Source: an uncultured Chloroflexia bacterium
Lineage (GTDB): Bacteria; Chloroflexota; Dehalococcoidia; GIF9; AB-539-J10
DNA: 64,000 nt
Direction: 5' to 3'
Assembly: GCA_963726175.1 (NCBI GenBank)
Contig: CAVSBM010000008.1
Coordinates: forward strand, 26,153 to 90,152
Below, piece after piece: positions 2,581 to 26,234 of the stretch (position 1 is the first letter of the stretch; each line of letters begins with the position of its first letter). A program made the translations under genes and the position numbers. The notes beneath the pieces are model-generated. The model was not told where the DNA came from. It made no database searches and was given only the letters and a program-made list of their open reading frames with translations.

Positions 2581-3207
2581 ATGTTTCCAGGCATTATCGG
2601 TAGGAAAATAGGCATGACGCAACTGTTTCAAGAAAGCGGAGAGACAGTGGCAGTAAGCGTTATTCAAGCTGGGCCTTCTGTGGTAACTCAGGTAAAGAGC
2701 CATGACAAGGATGGTTATGATGCTATACAAGTGGGCTTAATTGAGAACAAGGTGAGGCAATCTCAGCTTAGCTCTCCCGAAAAAGGACATCTTCGAGACT
2801 TGGAGAACGTTCGCTATCTTCGCGAATTCAGGGCTGACGATATCAGCTCGATCAAGCGTGGTGACAAAGTGGACGTTGGATTCTTGAAGCAAGGTGACTT
2901 GGTAAATGTGATTGGCCTTTCTAAGGGTAGGGGCTTCGCTGGTGTGGTTAAGAGGTATCATTTTGCTGGTGGGCCGAAGACCCACGGCCAGACTGACCGC
3001 CATCGCGCCCCTGGTTCAATTGGAGCTACTACTTTTCCGGGGCGGGTTCTTAAAGGAAAACGCATGGCGGGGCATATGGGAAACAAGAGAGTGACAGCGC
3101 GTAACCTCGTGGTTGTTCAAGCTGACCCGGAGCGCAATTTGCTTTTAGTGAAGGGTGCAGTACCTGGGCCCAATGGAGAGTTGTTACTAATTGAGAAAGT
3201 AAGGTAG
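2581..3207 (+). CDS. rplC: 50S ribosomal protein L3
   Basis: 208-aa ORF (GIIGRKIGMTQLF...) in the conserved S10-operon order. Confidence 0.95.
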   Translation: MFPGIIGRKIGMTQLFQESGETVAVSVIQAGPSVVTQVKSHDKDGYDAIQVGLIENKVRQSQLSSPEKGHLRDLENVRYLREFRADDISSIKRGDKVDVGFLKQGDLVNVIGLSKGRGFAGVVKRYHFAGGPKTHGQTDRHRAPGSIGATTFPGRVLKGKRMAGHMGNKRVTARNLVVVQADPERNLLLVKGAVPGPNGELLLIEKVR

Positions 3208-9628: not shown

Positions 9629-10002
9629 TGATTATAATGAGCGGGAAAGATTCAAAGGCAATCAAAAAGATACGACACAGACGGGTGAGGCAAAAAGTAA
9701 CGGGAACGATATCACGTCCTCGATTATGTGTCTTCCGTAGCTCGAATCATATCCATGCTCAGCTTATCGATGATTCTATGGGCCAGACTTTAGTCTCAAT
9801 GAGCACTCTTGACTCTCAGGTGAGAAGCAAGACCGATGGGATGGGAAAAAGCAAGGAAGCCGAAATAGTGGGAACTTTGCTTGCGGAGAAAGCATTAAAT
9901 AAAGGGATCAAACAGGTGGTTTTTGACCGTGGCGGCTATAAATATCATGGCAGAGTTAAGGCTTTAGCTGAGGCTGCCAGGAAAGTTGGATTGGAATTTT
10001 GA
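9628..10002 (+). CDS. rplR: 50S ribosomal protein L18
   Basis: 124-aa ORF. The likely start is ATG 9637 ([18 protein letters not shown]). Confidence 0.93.
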
Positions 10003-10012
10003 GGATTAGCTT

Positions 10013-10555
10013 ATGAAGGCAGTTACTAAAGTAAGAGGAAAGAGGGCCAAAATCGATGCCTCAGAACTGAGTCTCGAAGAGAAACTGTTAGGCATCGACC
10101 GTGTAACCAAAGTAGTCAAAGGTGGTAGACACCTTCGGTTCAGAGCTTTAGTGGTAGTTGGCGATGGCCAGGGGCATGTCGGATTTAGTTTAGCTAAAGC
10201 GGCAGCGGTTCCTGAAGCGATCCGTAAAGCAGGTGCTATGGCGAAGAAGGAGCTGATTGAGGTGCCTATCAAGGATGGTACCATCCCTCATGAAATTCTA
10301 GCCAAGTTTGGTGCGTCCAAGATCTTACTAAAGCCGGCGGCGCCTGGTACGGGCTTAATTGTTGGCAGTGCTGCTCGAACAATACTGGAATTAGCAGGGA
10401 TAAAAGACGCCATTGGCAAATCGTTTGGTGGGCCGAGTAAGATTAACGTGGCTAAGGCGACAATGCTTGCCCTGGCTAACTTGAGGAAAAGTGAGGAAGC
10501 GGCAATTCAAACCGATGTTGAAGCTCAGGAAGAAAAGGTAGATGAAACAGAATGA
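10013..10555 (+). CDS. rpsE: 30S ribosomal protein S5 (with acidic C-terminal tail)
   Basis: 180-aa ORF with an S5 dsRBD and C-terminal domain. It carries an extra tail, [20 protein letters not shown]. Confidence 0.93.
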
Positions 10556-10985
10556 ATTAATGCCTCCTGCGGGTGCTAAGCATAATAAGAAGCGCGTAGG
10601 TCGAGGAAACGGCAGCGGGCATGGCACCTATTCAGGGCGGGGTTGCAAAGGGCAAAAGGCTCGCTCTGGTGGTGGCGTGCGTCTTGGCTTTGAAGGCGGA
10701 CAGTTGCCTTTGATAAAACGGCTACCAGAAAAAAGGGGATTCACTAACATTTTTAAAACTAAATATAATATTGTCAACGTGGGGAAGCTGGCCATTTTCC
10801 CCTCAGGAACTGAGGTAGCTCCTGAGGAATTACTCCGGGAGGGGTTGATTAGCACCACGGACCATCCGACCAAAATTCTTGGCGCTGGCGATATCCAACA
10901 TCCATTGCTGGTTAAGGCTAACAAATTCTCTTCATCGGCGGAGAAAAAAATCCTCGCTGCTGGAGGGAAGATAGAGCAGGTTTAG
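10542..10985 (+). CDS. rplO: 50S ribosomal protein L15
   Basis: 147-aa ORF with a Gly/Arg-rich N-terminus. It overlaps the rpsE end, so no L30 gene lies between them. Confidence 0.93.
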
Positions 10986-18641: not shown

Positions 18642-18669
18642 TTGCTCCGGATCAGAGAACAGCTATAAT
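18642..18669 (+). promoter_or_regulatory. candidate sigma-70-type promoter for tRNA-Gln
   Basis: TTGCTC (18642-18647), a 16-nt spacer, then TATAAT (18664-18669). It ends 9 nt upstream of the tRNA 5' end. Confidence 0.4.
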
Positions 18670-18678
18670 GGAACATAC

Positions 18679-18752
18679 TGGGGATTAGTCTAGCGGTAGG
18701 ACAGCGGGCTCTGGACCCGTGAGGCCAGGTTCGAATCCTGGATCCCCAGCCA
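18679..18752 (+). tRNA. tRNA-Gln (anticodon CUG), CCA encoded
   Basis: Hand-folded. Acceptor TGGGGAT/ATCCCCA, anticodon stem GCGGG/CCCGT with loop CTCTGGA, T arm CCAGG-TTCGAAT-CCTGG, discriminator G then CCA. Confidence 0.85.
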
Positions 18753-18899
18753 GGCTACGTAATTTTATTACTGCAAATTAGCTAGAAGCACTCGCATTGT
18801 TCTATACTGACTGAGATTGGAGTTTGGTAGTCATATTACTCTCAAAGCCAGAGTCCGAGTCACCCCCGTTCCATTTTGGGTATCAGACAAACTGGACAA

Positions 18900-19427
18900 A
18901 TGTGGGAGTGCAGTGTGATTCGATATGCTCAGGCCGCTGATTTAGGTGCCATCTTAGATATCTACAATGATGCGATATTAAATACCGCATCAGTCTACTA
19001 CTATAAACCGCATACAATTGAAGACAGGTTATCTTGGTATGAGAGGAAAGTCAGAGATGGATTTCCAGTGCTTGTGTTCGAGGAGAACAACCATGTAATT
19101 GGGTTTGCAACGTTTGGGCCTTTTAGAGTTAGGCCGGCATATAAATATACAGTAGAACATTCAGTCTACGTCCACAAAGACCATAGAAGAAAAGGTGTTG
19201 GCACTAGACTTATGATGGACTTAATAAAGATTGCGAACGAAAGAGAGTGCGCTACAGTGGTTGCCGGGATTGACTCCAGCAATGAGGGCAGCAGGGTCAT
19301 GCACGAAAATTTGGGGTTTACCAACTGCGGCACTATCAAGAGAGTGGGATACAAGTTTGGCAAATGGCTTAACGTGACTTTTTATCAGTATGAACTTCGA
19401 GGGCCTACAACACCAAAGGAAGAATAG
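18900..19427 (+). CDS. GNAT-family N-acetyltransferase (phosphinothricin/methionine-sulfoximine acetyltransferase-like)
   Basis: Track ORF is 18876-19427. It contains ..IRYAQAADLGAILDIYNDAILNT.. and the acetyl-CoA motif HRRKGVGTRLM. The start is ATG 18900 or GTG 18915. Confidence 0.8.
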   Translation: MWECSVIRYAQAADLGAILDIYNDAILNTASVYYYKPHTIEDRLSWYERKVRDGFPVLVFEENNHVIGFATFGPFRVRPAYKYTVEHSVYVHKDHRRKGVGTRLMMDLIKIANERECATVVAGIDSSNEGSRVMHENLGFTNCGTIKRVGYKFGKWLNVTFYQYELRGPTTPKEE

Positions 19428-19476
19428 CATTCGCTGCTAGTCGGTAAGATGTATTAAGTATGGGACTACTTCTAGC

Positions 19477-19578
19477 TATAATCTCCATGGCTGGCAGGGA
19501 TTTTGTAAGCAGTTCACGCAATCTTGGTGCTGAGTCGGATTTGAGAAAGTGCGATATGTGTCCTGAGCACTCAGCCGG
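19477..19578 (+). repeat. islet-boundary repeat, copy A (~100 nt)
   Basis: TATAAT...GGCTGGC...CGCAATCT.GG...AGAAAGTGCGATATGTGTCCTG...CAGCC. It aligns with copies B and C. Confidence 0.6.
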
Positions 19579-19649
19579 GGAAGGTGATAAAATCACCTCA
19601 GACTGTTTTCTAATTGGCGTAAGAAATAGGAATAAGAAGAGGCAAAATC

Positions 19650-20066
19650 ATGAACTATAAATGGATGACGGCACCCTGCGGATTAGATTGTTTCAACTGT
19701 TTAATGTACCTGGCGAATGAGAATGAGGAGCTGAGAGCCAAAATTTCCAAGAACTTGGGCATCCCATTTGTGCAGGCGGTATGTAAAGGGTGTCGTGGGG
19801 AGGCTGGGAAACCAGATTTTCTTAACTGGACTGAACCCTGTAGTGTTTATAGGTGCGTCACCAAAAGAAACCTTGATTTTTGCTCTGAGTGTTCTGACTT
19901 TCCATGTGACAATCTTCACCCGTATGCAGATAGAGCATCCGAAGTGCCTCACAATACCAAAGTCTTTAATCTGTGTTTAATAAAGAAAATGGGCTTGGAA
20001 TCATGGGCAAAAACAAAAGCCAAAGATGTGAGGCATACATATTTCAAAGAAAAGTTCAAGCTGTAA
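19650..20066 (+). CDS. DUF3795-like cysteine-rich protein
   Basis: 138 aa with the pattern CGLDCFNC...CKGCR...C...C...CSECSDFPC, which I recognise as the DUF3795 arrangement. Confidence 0.6.
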   Translation: MNYKWMTAPCGLDCFNCLMYLANENEELRAKISKNLGIPFVQAVCKGCRGEAGKPDFLNWTEPCSVYRCVTKRNLDFCSECSDFPCDNLHPYADRASEVPHNTKVFNLCLIKKMGLESWAKTKAKDVRHTYFKEKFKL

Positions 20067-20167
20067 CAAGGCGCGCACGATTTCAACTATGAAGCCACAT
20101 CAGGAATTGTCCCGATAAGTCCTCGTAAACGAATCTGAGCCCTGTGTTGCCTGCTGTATTTCTGTTG

Positions 20168-20285
20168 TATAATAGTTACGGCCGCGGCGACAAGGAGCCC
20201 GACTTCCCAAATAGCTGGCGCAATCTCGGGACTAATTCTGGTCTTAGAAAGTTCGATATGTGTCCTGGATCCCCAGCCAGTGTGG
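20168..20285 (+). repeat. islet-boundary repeat, copy B, containing an exact 18-nt copy of the tRNA-Gln 3' end
   Basis: TCCTGGATCCCCAGCCAG at 20263-20280 is identical to 18736-18753. The flanks AAAGTTCGATATG and CCCAGCCAGTGTGG are shared with copy C. Confidence 0.8.
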
Positions 20286-20301
20286 ATTGCGCAAGAGAGT
20301 C

Positions 20302-21291
20302 ATGGACGCAGAAGATTTGTCATACGACGTTGATAGTCGGATCGATACAACCACTCTGAGCAAGAACCTCAGGAGAGTGAAGGTTAAGGGTGTTAGGGAG
20401 CGAGGAGAGAGGTTCTCTGCTAGTTTAAAGCTGGTAAACAATATGATGATTCTGCCGCGAGTGTTATTGAGTATCGGTCACCTCGGACGTGTGATGGCGT
20501 TTTACGAGACCAAAGCAGCTATATTGGCGACCCTGAGCCAAGAGAGAGAGGATGATTATCAAGAACAGTATCGGAGAGAGCTTGACGAACTGATGGAATC
20601 GCAGTTCTTGCCGAAGCAGGAAAAAATTATGGAACAGACGGAGGAGGGTGGTAAGCAGGCCTTTCTCGGTCTGCTGAATAAGGACGCTAATGTGGGGAAA
20701 ACATATGAGGCGATTCTTTACTCTGGCATCGTATGGACATGGTGCAGTTTTGAAGTGCTGACGAGGGAACTTTGGGAGTATGCCCTAAACGCCGGCGGCA
20801 GATACCTAGGCAAGACCGTCATAAGGAAATTGCCCTCCAAAAACGGAATAAGGGACAAGCTTCGAAGCAAATTCATAAGTCTTGATTATCTTGCTCAGCA
20901 TGACTATGACCTATCTAAAAGCCTGGGGACTGCTCTGGTGAACAAGTTTGATTTTACCTCGTGTAATGGAATCTCAGAAGCTTATTCGTGCGCATTCCCC
21001 AAAAGCGCCGATATCAAGAACGCTCTCAAAAATAAGAAGATAAGTGATCTCGAAGCCACAAGGAACGTCATAGTCCATAATGCAGGATTCATTGACGTCG
21101 CTTACTGTAAGAGGACAGCAGCAAGCGTAACCGACGTAGGGAAGAGACTCAAGTTGAGCAACCGCAGAGCATCCGAATACGGCAATGCTGCCATAGATGC
21201 TGGGCTCGCCATAATGCTTTCTGTATCCTCGAACTTGCTGTATGCAAAGGCAACTGCGCGGAAAACAGCGGCGAGTTCGTCAAGCGATTGA
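20302..21291 (+). CDS. hypothetical protein with HEPN-like Rx4H motif
   Basis: Track ORF is 20260-21291. Its first 14 codons lie inside repeat B, so ATG 20302 is the more plausible start. The C-terminal region has LEATRNVIVHNAG (R-x4-H), preceded by a WTWCSFEVLTRELWEYAL helix, as seen in several HEPN families. Confidence 0.4.
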   Translation: MDAEDLSYDVDSRIDTTTLSKNLRRVKVKGVRERGERFSASLKLVNNMMILPRVLLSIGHLGRVMAFYETKAAILATLSQEREDDYQEQYRRELDELMESQFLPKQEKIMEQTEEGGKQAFLGLLNKDANVGKTYEAILYSGIVWTWCSFEVLTRELWEYALNAGGRYLGKTVIRKLPSKNGIRDKLRSKFISLDYLAQHDYDLSKSLGTALVNKFDFTSCNGISEAYSCAFPKSADIKNALKNKKISDLEATRNVIVHNAGFIDVAYCKRTAASVTDVGKRLKLSNRRASEYGNAAIDAGLAIMLSVSSNLLYAKATARKTAASSSSD

Positions 21292-21328
21292 GAGATAGCG
21301 GCAGTCGCGGAGTTAGCAAGTTAGCTGA

Positions 21329-21438
21329 TATAATAGTCAAGGCTGGCGTGACAAGCATTTCGCGAGTAGTTCGCGTAATTGTGGAACCAAATCGACACGT
21401 AAAAAGTTCGATATGCTTCTCGAGTGCCCAGCCAGTGT
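21329..21438 (+). repeat. islet-boundary repeat, copy C, abutting tRNA-Glu
   Basis: TGATATAAT (an extended -10-like element) ...GGCTGGC...AAAGTTCGATATGCTTCTCGAGTGCCCAGCCAGTGTGG, running straight into the tRNA-Glu 5' end. Confidence 0.6.
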
Positions 21439-21515
21439 GGCGCATTCGTCTAGAGGCCTAGGACACCTCCCTCTCAAGGAGGAGATCACCGGTTCAAATC
21501 CGGTATGCGCTACCA
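21439..21515 (+). tRNA. tRNA-Glu (anticodon CUC), CCA encoded
   Basis: GGCGCATTCGTCTAGAGGCCTAGGACACCTCCCTCTCAAGGAGGAG...GGTTCAAATCC...ATGCGCTACCA. The anticodon stem is CCTCC/GGAGG with loop CTCTCAA. Confidence 0.85.
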
Positions 21516-21531
21516 GTTCTGTTAACACGTA

Positions 21532-21559
21532 GGACTTCCTTTGAGGAAGTTCTTTGTTT
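21532..21559 (+). terminator. intrinsic terminator after tRNA-Glu
   Basis: Stem GGACTTCC / GGAAGTTC (8 bp, one G-U) with loop TTTGA, followed by TTTGTTTA. Confidence 0.6.
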
Positions 21560-21665: not shown

Positions 21666-22557
21666 ATGCCACCAGTGAAAGATGTGTTCGAACATGAATA
21701 TGCTGATGTTAATAACGTACGTCTCCACTATGTAACGGCGGGCAAGGGGAAATTGATAATGTTCCTCCACGGTTTTCCTGAGTTCTGGTATGAGTGGAAG
21801 AACCAGCTTGCTGAATTCGGACGAGATTATCAGGCGGTGGCTCCGGACATGCGCGGCTATAATCTTTCATCGAAACCTGCTGAAGTAGCAGCAATATCGG
21901 ATGAAATATCTCATTGGTGATATTCGTGCTCTTGCTGAGCATCTTGGGTATAAGAAGTTCATCCTCGTGGCTCATGACTGGGGTGGTGGGGTGGCCTGGC
22001 CGTTCGCAATACGTCATCCTGAATATCTGGAGAAGCTCATAATAATAAATGCCGTACATCCTGTTATCTTTATGCGCGAGCTCCGTGATAACCCAGCGCA
22101 ACAGAAAGCCAGTCAGTATATTCTCGTATATCGTACCCCCAAGGCTGAAGAGATACTGTCCAGAAACAACTATGCTTTGCCTGCTAGCAACCTGCTGGAG
22201 GATGGGCTAAAGCAGGGCTATTTCACGGAAGAAGACAGGAAAGCATATATTGAAGCCTGGTCGCAGCCTGGAGCGCTCACCGGTGGTTTAAACTATTATC
22301 GAGCCGCCCATCTCGGCCCTTTTACAGGTGAAAGCGACGATAGCTTGTCCGCAGACCCTTCATTGTTCACGGTCGAGGTGCCGACGCTGGTCATCTGGGG
22401 GGAGAAAGACAAATGGCTGCTTACAGGAAATCTGGAAGGTCTGGAAAAGTACGTACCAAATCTGACCATCAAGCGTATTCCTGATGGCTCGCACTGGGTC
22501 ATTCATGAAAAGCCCGCGCTGGTTAATTCCTACATTAGAGAATTTATCGAAGGCTGA
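21666..22557 (+). CDS. alpha/beta-fold hydrolase (epoxide hydrolase / haloalkane dehalogenase-like), one frame break
   Basis: ORFs 21666-21920 and 21901-22557 contain HGFPEFWYEW and the nucleophile elbow VAHDWGG. A +1 break near 21888 splits them; removing one base gives ..KPAEVQQYRMKYLIGDI... Confidence 0.8.
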
Positions 22558-26069: not shown

Positions 26070-26234
26070 GACCTGCTGGAAAGGTTCATCGCTTCCCGTC
26101 CCGAAGGTAACAGCAAGAGGACTATAGAGTCCTACCGAGTTAAAGTGGATCGGCTTGGCAGTGGATTGCTGGGTGATGAGAGTGTTTTGAGATTCTCAGA
26201 GCAACCAGCTAATGACAGCCATAAGACTGCCTGA
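26070..26234 (+). pseudogene. possible N-terminal remnant of a tyrosine recombinase/integrase (SAM-like core-binding region)
   Basis: An open frame runs directly from the tRNA-Val end with no start codon: DLLERFIASRPEGNSKRTIESYRVKVDRLGSGLLGDES..., stopping at 26232-26234. The ..FL.SR....S.kTi.sYr.. pattern is typical of integrase N-termini. A tandem GTTCACAAA x2 at 26050-26068 precedes it. Confidence 0.3.

Follow-up and report, generated by a model that had tools for sequence, protein, structure and literature searches.

The stockpiling of single genes as mobile cassettes at one place in the chromosome is, to our knowledge, well understood so far only for integrons. Small modules that lie between recombination sites, carry no recombinase of their own and are moved by an enzyme acting in trans include the cis-mobilizable elements (CIMEs), which are deletion derivatives of integrative and conjugative elements (ICEs) and use the ICE integrase, and the pdif modules of Acinetobacter, which are bounded by 28-bp Xer sites, are served by XerC/D, reside on plasmids and are not targeted to tRNA genes. 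Within the Dehalococcoidia, the ssrA islands of Dehalococcoides are multi-gene elements distributed over as much as 100 kb, and 16 of the elements carry a six-gene integration module including the serine recombinase DsiB (McMurdie et al. 2011, PMC3146451). Their repeat consists of a 20-bp tmRNA fragment and a 15-bp motif, and some of the islands lack integration genes and have been proposed to be cis-mobilizable (PMC3146451). The tycheposons of Prochlorococcus encode their own tyrosine or serine recombinase together with replication genes, and their remnants have been described as degenerated (Hackl et al., bioRxiv 10.1101/2020.12.28.424599). This study examined a 2.7-kb interval between the genes for tRNA-Gln(CTG) and tRNA-Glu(CTC) in a 64,000-nt stretch of DNA from an uncultured Dehalococcoidia bacterium (the window; positions 26,153 to 90,152 of contig CAVSBM010000008.1, assembly GCA_963726175.1). 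The interval carries three single-gene segments, each closed by a related repeat that is here called the unit (copies A, B and C). The array probably consists of three mobile cassettes that are mobilised in trans and were inserted by site-specific recombination at the tRNA-Gln end, with the promoters in the units keeping the genes 3' of them transcribed. The cassette family is previously undescribed; literature searches found no description of it.

Comparison with relatives identifies the interval as inserted DNA. Loci around the gene for ribosomal protein S9 were taken from one genome per species, the close relatives all being metagenome-assembled genomes (MAGs) of Dehalococcoidia, and six of these relatives (loci L001, L003, L008, L010, L017 and L029) have a gap of 4-5 nt between the two tRNA genes, in agreement with the ancestral linked pair proposed in a first-pass annotation of the window. 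Nucleotide identity to the window over the S9 gene is 89.6-90.9% for the three empty-site genomes with a scorable S9 gene (L001, L003 and L017), compared with 87.6-92.4% for occupied genomes. Additionally, contigs carrying the empty-site joint (18744 joined to 21427) at a depth of 81-133 were found in two of the four examined metagenome runs that hold window sequence. Since the empty-site genomes are as close to the window as the occupied ones and the empty joint occurs in metagenomes, the 2.7 kb represent inserted DNA, and the locus is polymorphic for inserts among close relatives. A single insertion, consisting of a DUF3795 gene and a B-like unit, separates the tRNA genes in L005, and L002 has two, a methyltransferase gene with an A-like unit followed by the DUF3795 gene with a B-like unit. 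The tRNA-Gln promoter is the only promoter able to serve both tRNA genes in the empty-site relatives, and because the gap there is only 4 nt, tRNA-Glu must be co-transcribed with tRNA-Gln. The empty sites have no unit; therefore, the unit is not a native tRNA leader, an explanation that the first-pass annotation had allowed for.

According to ARAGORN and Rfam, tRNA-Gln(CTG) occupies 18679-18752 of the window and tRNA-Glu(CTC) 21439-21515, both on the forward strand. The tRNA-Gln gene is intact (Rfam tRNA, 60.5 bits) and follows a promoter with its -10 box, TATAAT, at 18664-18669, AGCTATAAT being kept 5' of tRNA-Gln in relatives; its 3' end, ...TCCTGGATCCCCAGCCA, is the primary attachment site. 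As first proposed, insertions enter at this 3' end and leave the tRNA intact, and the units behave as displaced right-hand ends of the attachment (att) type. The locus shows the arrangement of a tRNA island: the tRNA on one side is intact, the opposite side carries a direct repeat of the tRNA 3' part, and relatives have an empty site. The 18 nt TCCTGGATCCCCAGCCAG at 18736-18753 recur exactly at 20263-20280 (blastn within the window, E = 3e-4), whereas by our arithmetic a given 18-mer should recur by chance about 2e-6 times on both strands of 64 kb. Compared with the tRNA-Gln 3' end, unit B matches at all 18 nt, unit C at 14 of 18 and unit A at 13 of 18. The three units are homologous and align over about 110-130 nt; a profile built from them gives E = 1e-31 to 1e-36 at 19471-19583, 20161-20289 and 21322-21443 and detects no fourth copy in the 64-kb window.

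Cassette 1 (18753-19579), delimited with Pfam, NCBIfam and nhmmer, opens with a left-end motif common to other cassettes, a hairpin GTAAT-TTT-ATTAC (18759-18771) followed by TAGCTAG (18779-18785). Its cargo is a GNAT acetyltransferase coding sequence (CDS) at 18900-19427, an assignment already made from the sequence and now supported by Pfam (Acetyltransf_1, E = 1.6e-20, 74 bits against a cut-off of 20.7); the protein is nearest to phosphinothricin/arsinothricin acetyltransferase models, yet scores under their cut-offs. The cassette closes with unit A (19471-19579; TATAAT at 19477-19482, core TCCTGAGCACTCAGCC at 19561-19576). Cassette 2 (19580-20282) has the left-end hairpin GGTGAT-AAA-ATCACC (19583-19597) and a DUF3795 CDS (19650-20066), likewise as first assigned (Pfam, E = 3.6e-20, 72.7 bits against a cut-off of 22.6). 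It ends in unit B, whose conserved part extends from about 20085 to 20282 according to a conservation profile and an upstream extension, with TATAAT at 20168-20173 and the 18 nt identical to tRNA-Gln at 20263-20280. Cassette 3 (20283-21437) is without the canonical left-end hairpin and begins after GTGTGG (20281-20286), which combines a copy of the native spacer with the first two nucleotides of tRNA-Glu. It carries a CDS at 20302-21291 for a predicted all-alpha protein of 329 aa with an invariant R-x4-H motif, possibly a HEPN protein, and ends in unit C (21322-21437; TATAAT at 21329-21334, core TCTCGAGTGCCCAGCCAG at 21418-21435). All three cassettes are given in forward-strand orientation. 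Units B and C share the terminal CCCAGCCAGTGTGG, as had been noted, and unit C directly adjoins tRNA-Glu, the native spacer (G)TGT and tRNA-Glu together occupying 21435-21515 with the same spacer as in the empty site L001. The tRNA-Glu gene now lies 2.7 kb from the tRNA-Gln promoter and approximately 105 nt 3' of the unit C promoter.

The unit belongs to a widespread family. An IUPAC pattern derived from two conserved boxes was run against genome and metagenome collections, followed by an nhmmer profile; the first pattern scans and nhmmer yielded 78 distinct units and a second pattern scan added more. All units but one lie on contigs labelled Dehalococcoidia/Chloroflexota or on unlabelled metagenome contigs, the exception being a 2-kb contig binned as Pseudomonadota. 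A scan of viral contigs for the unit 3' site gave no matches, leaving a phage or plasmid origin of the units unsupported. Among 65 non-redundant loci, 34 have tRNA-Gln(CTG) just 5' and/or tRNA-Glu(CTC) just 3' and three follow tRNA-Gln(TTG), 37 in all; one precedes tRNA-Asn and five have neither setting within the available flanks, with the flanks of the remainder too short to tell. Cassettes begin directly after tRNA-Gln in more than 20 loci, and arrays contain from one to at least five units (five in L100). Several MAGs have units on two or three contigs, some copies lying away from tRNA-Gln, and many contigs end inside a unit, as is typical of assemblers at repeats. The first-pass annotation had considered that the unit might be a dispersed repeat unrelated to tRNA-Gln; it is a multi-copy repeat, but one tied to tRNA-Gln.

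Because the same gene could be compared in different neighbourhoods, the cassette boundaries could be fixed. The left boundary falls within or just past CCCAGCCA of the preceding tRNA-Gln or unit, and most cassettes then begin with a short left-end motif of approximately AAAGGTAAT-nnn-ATTACC..AAnTAGCTAG, in which a 5-6-bp hairpin (typically GGTAAT-nnn-ATTACC) often precedes AAnTAGCTAG. The right end is a unit of about 110-200 nt that finishes in CCCAGCCA, the tRNA-Gln terminus, and that contains the invariant boxes GYAATCTTGG and AAAGTTCGATATG and the 3' core TCCyGAGTsCCCAGCCA. Between these ends, 45 cassettes from public contigs carry 27 cargo families, mostly as one intact open reading frame (ORF) in cassettes of which most are about 0.65-1.3 kb long, in either orientation (approximately 40% of the ORFs are on the opposite strand). 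The cargo includes GNAT and DUF3795 proteins, two kinds of S-adenosylmethionine-dependent methyltransferase, an isochorismatase, a TrkH-like transporter and many proteins without a family. The first-pass annotation had regarded the segments as elements decayed to one gene each; the compactness, the intact ORFs, the 27 families among 45 cassettes and the same conserved ends instead indicate a cassette design. It had also been puzzling that copy A, expected to be the youngest, was the most diverged. This expectation does not hold, as A, B and C represent different subfamilies that each have closer relatives in other genomes; A-type units, for example, also follow a methyltransferase gene in L002, L083, L085, L101 and L142.

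A near-perfect predicted sigma-70 promoter that faces outward is conserved within the unit, comprising TTGnnn, 16-18 nt, often TGn, and TATAAT. Of 66 full-length units, 57 have the exact TATAAT and the rest match it at five of six positions; TGn is present in 43 of the 66 and TTGnnn at 16-18 nt in most. Nearly all units directly 5' of tRNA-Glu keep the promoter, L151 being the one exception, and an internally deleted unit in L105 is reduced to the promoter and the 3' site. 'Short' units without the promoter half also occur (L096 and L135); they keep the last ~45 nt and still end cassettes. Many units are preceded by a diverged short site and an inverted copy of the 3' box, and since unit B has this upstream short site and inverted box too, it really starts near 20085, approximately 80 nt further 5' than first annotated. 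The inverted GGGGACTCGAACC box 5' of many units raised the idea of an invertible promoter, which is unsupported, neither a flipped unit in any array nor a strand-change joint having been found. Separately, in eight loci (L094, L124, L154, L155, L161, L133, L134 and L143) the unit core is directly followed by AAGAAGCTTTCCGAACTTCT..., a stretch that repeats the 5' portion of the short site in inverted orientation, giving ~50 bp with inverted AAGTTCG boxes near the crossover point. The last unit of the five-unit array in L100 (5121-5202 in unit orientation, 3086-3167 of the locus) is without the 3' core and is fused to the ribosome-binding site and start of a melibiase (GH36) gene, as if its promoter half had been recruited as the melibiase promoter.

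Re-use of the same cassette in different att contexts was seen for several cargo genes. The DUF3795 cassette, found in 14 loci, has tRNA-Gln as its immediate 5' neighbour in L005 and on an RNA-library contig, and elsewhere follows five different upstream cassettes (GNAT, methyltransferase, orf147, orf287 and orf299); its 3' neighbour is tRNA-Glu or, in the window, the third cassette. The RNA runs holding the region, which consist of assembled contigs without direction, yielded extra arrangements of this cassette. The orf129 cassettes of L128 and L100 are 86% identical over 830 nt, the first following tRNA-Gln and the second a unit, and their homology begins at CCCAGC|TCTTGGTAAT in both. The orf177 and orf100 families also recur in different arrays. 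Of the serial insertion at tRNA-Gln originally suggested, entry at the tRNA-Gln 3' end is upheld, but the order of an array need not be the order of insertion. The cassette with the HEPN-like gene probably entered at the end of unit B, and not at the tRNA, since CCCAGCCAGTGTGG flanks it on both sides.

The relation of the unit end to tRNA-Gln is close without being identity. In an ungapped comparison with the tRNA-Gln 3' end, the unit consensus agrees at 14 of its last 17 nt, and the GTTCGA in the unit recalls a T-loop, but sits 5-7 nt further from the end than it does in the tRNA. Window unit B and the L138 unit terminate with an exact copy of the tRNA-Gln(CTG) 3' end and the L087 unit with one of the tRNA-Gln(TTG) 3' end, whereas orthologous B units elsewhere have a unit-type core and no exact 18-nt match. 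The near-identical units of L132 and L138 have 3' ends that differ only by a 6-nt patch (GAGTGC vs. GGATCC). Across the DUF3795 cassette, the core is the most variable part (mean pairwise identity of 0.75 vs. 0.85-0.94 for the rest of the unit). The exact match that first drew attention to the locus is a hybrid trait seen in these three units, and as read from the aligned sequences the exact 18-mer is a product of exchange between tRNA and unit, not a family-wide property. Among orthologous cassettes, unit B is conserved to the same degree as the rest of the cassette; therefore, a selection test on this unit is uninformative.

Combined, these results are probably best explained by trans-mobilised cassettes inserted by site-specific recombination. 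A circular cassette would recombine through its 3' core with the CCCAGC(CA) end of tRNA-Gln or, alternatively, with the same core closing a cassette already in place, in a conservative exchange. The enzyme would be a recombinase, most likely of the tyrosine type, whose gene lies at another place in the genome and for which the unit and the left-end motif would act as the arms of an attP-like site; the cassette ends flank the core by about 110-200 nt and ~35 nt and appear to have the size of an attP with arm sites. The tRNA would stay intact while arrays grow and shuffle. Insertion leaves tRNA-Glu 0.7-2.7 kb from the tRNA-Gln promoter; the first cassette would be read from that promoter, and the predicted outward promoter of each unit would restore transcription of the next cassette and of tRNA-Glu. 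Of the features of CIMEs, the cassettes have att-type sites on both sides and carry neither recombination nor transfer genes; genome, metagenome and viral scans showed no related autonomous element with matching ends. We know of no promoter-bearing end repeat of ~110 nt in either CIMEs or pdif modules.

Several observations weigh against trans-mobilised cassettes. No recombinase was detected in any cassette or consistently beside the arrays in motif scans of all loci and Pfam searches of the neighbouring genes. The left-end hairpin is enriched, being present at 55 of 81 junctions compared with 29 of 81 shuffled controls, but is not universal, and approximately 40% of the cargo genes point away from the promoter of the upstream unit. 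The DUF3795 gene diverges in step with the S9 gene, so that this cassette looks vertically inherited within its clade and recent mobility does not extend to every cassette. The right-hand boundaries are in part imprecise: cassette 3 of the window carries GTGTGG, and a cassette in L104 (unit at 1013-1124 in original coordinates) carries the next 32 nt, a piece of tRNA-Glu. This extra native sequence indicates that some exchanges took place to the right of the usual crossover, and homologous or illegitimate recombination therefore also contributes. Finally, neither a circular form nor an excision joint was seen in the assembled contigs.

The search for the recombinase also bears on the choice of enzyme. 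In agreement with the first-pass annotation, the window has no integrase, recombinase motif and Pfam scans of its ORFs being empty and without a Phage_integrase match. Tyrosine integrases of 383-388 aa lie just past tRNA-Glu in five loci and beside a unit in L150, and were tried as the cassette recombinase. Their relatives occur at the 3' ends of tRNA-Val and tRNA-Gly genes, and L150 keeps a 13-nt remnant of tRNA-Val. As the family targets several tRNAs, its members are ordinary tRNA-island integrases and the candidate was rejected, which again counts against the trans-mobilised cassettes. Since the lineage possesses arm-binding tyrosine integrases specific for tRNA ends, an integrase specific for tRNA-Gln and acting in trans is nevertheless plausible. 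Members of the 383-388-aa family (L105 4431-5591, L119 1053-2219, L113, L127, L142, L150 219-1367 and L173-L179) are 46-87% identical; in Dehalococcoidia they adjoin the 3' ends of tRNA-Glu, tRNA-Val(tac), tRNA-Val(cac) and tRNA-Gly, and the stretch that separates the integrase stop codon from the tRNA is conserved, containing GGCACTAAT-like direct repeats together with a terminator hairpin. A second type of insertion affects the same tRNA pair in L105 (2009-4353) and also in L141 and L146: a 2.2-kb element without an integrase but with a PD-(D/E)XK_4 nuclease gene, which interrupts tRNA-Glu(CTC) within its anticodon loop, with duplication of the spacer and the 5' 43 nt of tRNA-Glu.

Among the alternatives, it is unlikely that the system has no dedicated recombinase and that the interval between the tRNA genes is a hotspot of replacement by homologous recombination, with the units being repeated promoter-bearing intergenic DNA that provides extra homology. 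The highly conserved flanks (the ribosomal-protein operon and tRNA-Gln on one side, tRNA-Glu on the other) would suit such replacement, as would the imprecise boundaries formed by GTGTGG and the 32-nt tRNA-Glu piece, the apparent vertical inheritance of the DUF3795 cassette and the patchy hybrid cores, which resemble gene conversion. However, a hotspot leaves unexplained the same left and right ends on 27 unrelated genes, the identical junctions of the same cassette in tRNA and non-tRNA contexts, and the arrays and solo units away from the tRNA pair, and the shared junction core of only 6-9 nt is too short for RecA-type exchange.

It is improbable that complete islands with their own integrases entered the tRNA-Gln 3' end serially and each decayed to one gene and an attR, which is close to what was first suggested for the window. 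The intact tRNA, the direct repeats of its 3' end (18 nt exact in B) and the existence of empty sites are all as such islands would leave them, and tandem islands with repeats of tRNA or tmRNA 3' ends are known from Dehalococcoides (ssrA, PMC3146451) and Prochlorococcus (tycheposons). Like the ssrA islands, which occur in the same bacterial class, the elements described here are arranged in tandem 3' of a gene for a small stable RNA; direct repeats of the 3' end of that gene delimit each element, with extra conserved sequence just 5' of the repeat, and in both cases there are members without integration genes. Unlike them, the cassettes at tRNA-Gln are ~1 kb in length, hold a single gene and have promoter-bearing ends of 110-200 nt and no integration module. 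The tycheposons are similar in that a tRNA gene seeds a variable island in which partial tRNA copies part the insertions and newer elements push older ones away from the tRNA; here, in contrast, no element has a recombinase, and the small units look designed and not degraded. None of the 45 cassettes holds an integrase pseudogene or fragment, no cassette has an integrase beside the tRNA (the integrases seen lie past tRNA-Glu), and genome, metagenome and viral scans detected no autonomous member in which these ends enclose an integrase. Decay at random would be expected to produce varied lengths and remnants of genes, whereas the cassettes are uniformly compact with intact ORFs of 27 unrelated families between the same two ends, and the conserved non-tRNA sequence, in which a promoter lies, spans 110-200 nt.

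A true integron, or an attC cluster lacking a nearby integron integrase (CALIN), in which an IntI-type integrase from another locus would recombine the units as folded, single-stranded attC sites with tRNA-Gln serving as attI, is highly improbable. The resemblance is considerable: both systems form ordered arrays of compact, mostly single-ORF cassettes that each end in a recombination-site repeat (~60-140 nt in integrons, ~100 nt for the unit), both use one fixed site by a strong promoter with the recombinase outside the cassettes, and both have an integron-like range of cassette sizes and a cargo of acetyltransferases, methyltransferases and many unknowns; the units even have 7-nt inverted ends, TGGCTGG...CCAGCCA. 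However, by reading of the alignment these ends are without the R''/R' boxes of attC (RYYYAAC/GTTRRRY), and there is no extended hairpin, the two halves pairing only over the terminal 6-8 bp and not above shuffles, while 'short' units are without the 5' half altogether. The units bear their own outward promoters, which attC sites normally do not, the cargo is found in both orientations, and the site is the 3' end of a tRNA gene instead of an attI by intI. No intI was seen near any array or beside the insertion site, where the region upstream of tRNA-Gln is the ribosomal-protein operon or, in other lineages, the RNase III gene and not a recombinase.

The conservation of the unit could also reflect a product that it encodes. 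Any given reading frame is open in at most 14 of 58 copies, which excludes a small encoded protein. Rfam returned no match to the units, with only tRNAs reported even at E <= 10 for the window and eight other loci. Single-sequence folding was no better than that of shuffles (z = +0.1, +0.5 and -0.8), and RNAalifold found 0 pairs for 66 units. Hand-picked helices, including the terminal GGCTGG/CCAGCC stem, were 79.0% paired compared with 78.5% in column shuffles (a value reached by 42 of 500), with covariation of 0.131 vs. 0.126 (reached by 67 of 500). A structured RNA, whether in Rfam or new, was rejected on these grounds of no covariance-model match, no consensus structure and no covariation above shuffles; given that there is no Rfam match, no fold and no conserved frame, the conservation acts at the DNA level, in the promoter and protein-binding boxes. 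IS110-family elements often target repeated sequences and use guide RNAs, and in L086 (2017-2901; L102 has the same sequence) an IS110-family transposase gene (DEDD_Tnp_IS110 and Transposase_20) and a solo unit are divergently oriented, ~270 nt apart. That the unit is a small RNA gene or processed leader, such as a tRNA-like RNA or a recombinase guide RNA, is accordingly the least credible of the alternatives, for although it could draw on the strong conservation of the promoter, a predicted transcript start near UGGCUGG (complementary to the 3' CCAGCCA core of the transcript itself and to the tRNA-Gln terminus), the T-loop-like GTTCGA in the unit and a transposase of an RNA-guided recombinase family next to one unit, the 66 copies have no RNA signature in Rfam, folding or covariation, short units without the whole 5' part still end cassettes, and the IS110 gene is found at one locus only and on the opposite strand.

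The third cargo protein had first been called HEPN-like, an assignment that could not be confirmed: Pfam, NCBIfam, PADLOC and PDB sequences gave no matches (best PDB E = 0.2). Its predicted structure is all-helical (pLDDT, the predicted local distance difference test, of 87) and has no significant fold match in Foldseek (best E = 0.8), Csm6 appearing only at rank 8 with E = 1.8. Residues R254 and H259, forming the R-x4-H motif, are invariant in 32 homologues and are the sole pointer to HEPN; an R-x4-6-H motif in an all-alpha domain is present, and similarity to a recognised HEPN family was not found. Homologues of this gene occur directly after TniA-like (rve) and TniB-like (AAA_22) transposition genes on multi-copy contigs (L168-L171; L168 gene at 10001-10834), and another (L163, 10001-10969) lies next to tuf in an islet of 2.4 kb that is flanked by tRNA-Thr and tRNA-Tyr and has no nearby unit of the family described here.

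The array is flanked on its 5' side by the end of a ribosomal-protein cluster (truA, rplM, rpsI) and on its 3' side by an alpha/beta hydrolase gene, a tryptophanyl-tRNA synthetase gene and a further tRNA cluster. A consensus scan places a terminator-like hairpin with a T-run, closing the tRNA operon, at 21531-21553 on the forward strand; this is a weak assignment, such sites being no more frequent than in shuffles of the region. The hydrolase is split in the window into two overlapping frames of 84 and 218 aa (21666-22557), whereas an intact 296-aa ORF occupies the same place in L002, L005, L083 and L096; the split is either a frameshift pseudogene or an assembly error.

Taken further, it is possible, if tentative, that Dehalococcoidia own an integron-like gene-capture platform of independent origin, which would use the tRNA-Gln 3' end as its site, the tRNA promoter as the array promoter and new promoter-bearing ends of ~110 nt, with a dedicated non-IntI recombinase encoded elsewhere that inserts, excises and shuffles the cassettes. 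Judging from the sequences, the outward cassette promoter appears to offset the cost of splitting a tRNA operon. The units also break metagenome assemblies, and the conserved ends could serve the recovery of flexible Dehalococcoidia genes from environmental DNA by polymerase chain reaction (PCR), as attC primers do for integrons. A second, unrelated cassette solution in a lineage that is abundant and uncultured in sediment and groundwater would show that cassette platforms have had more than one origin.

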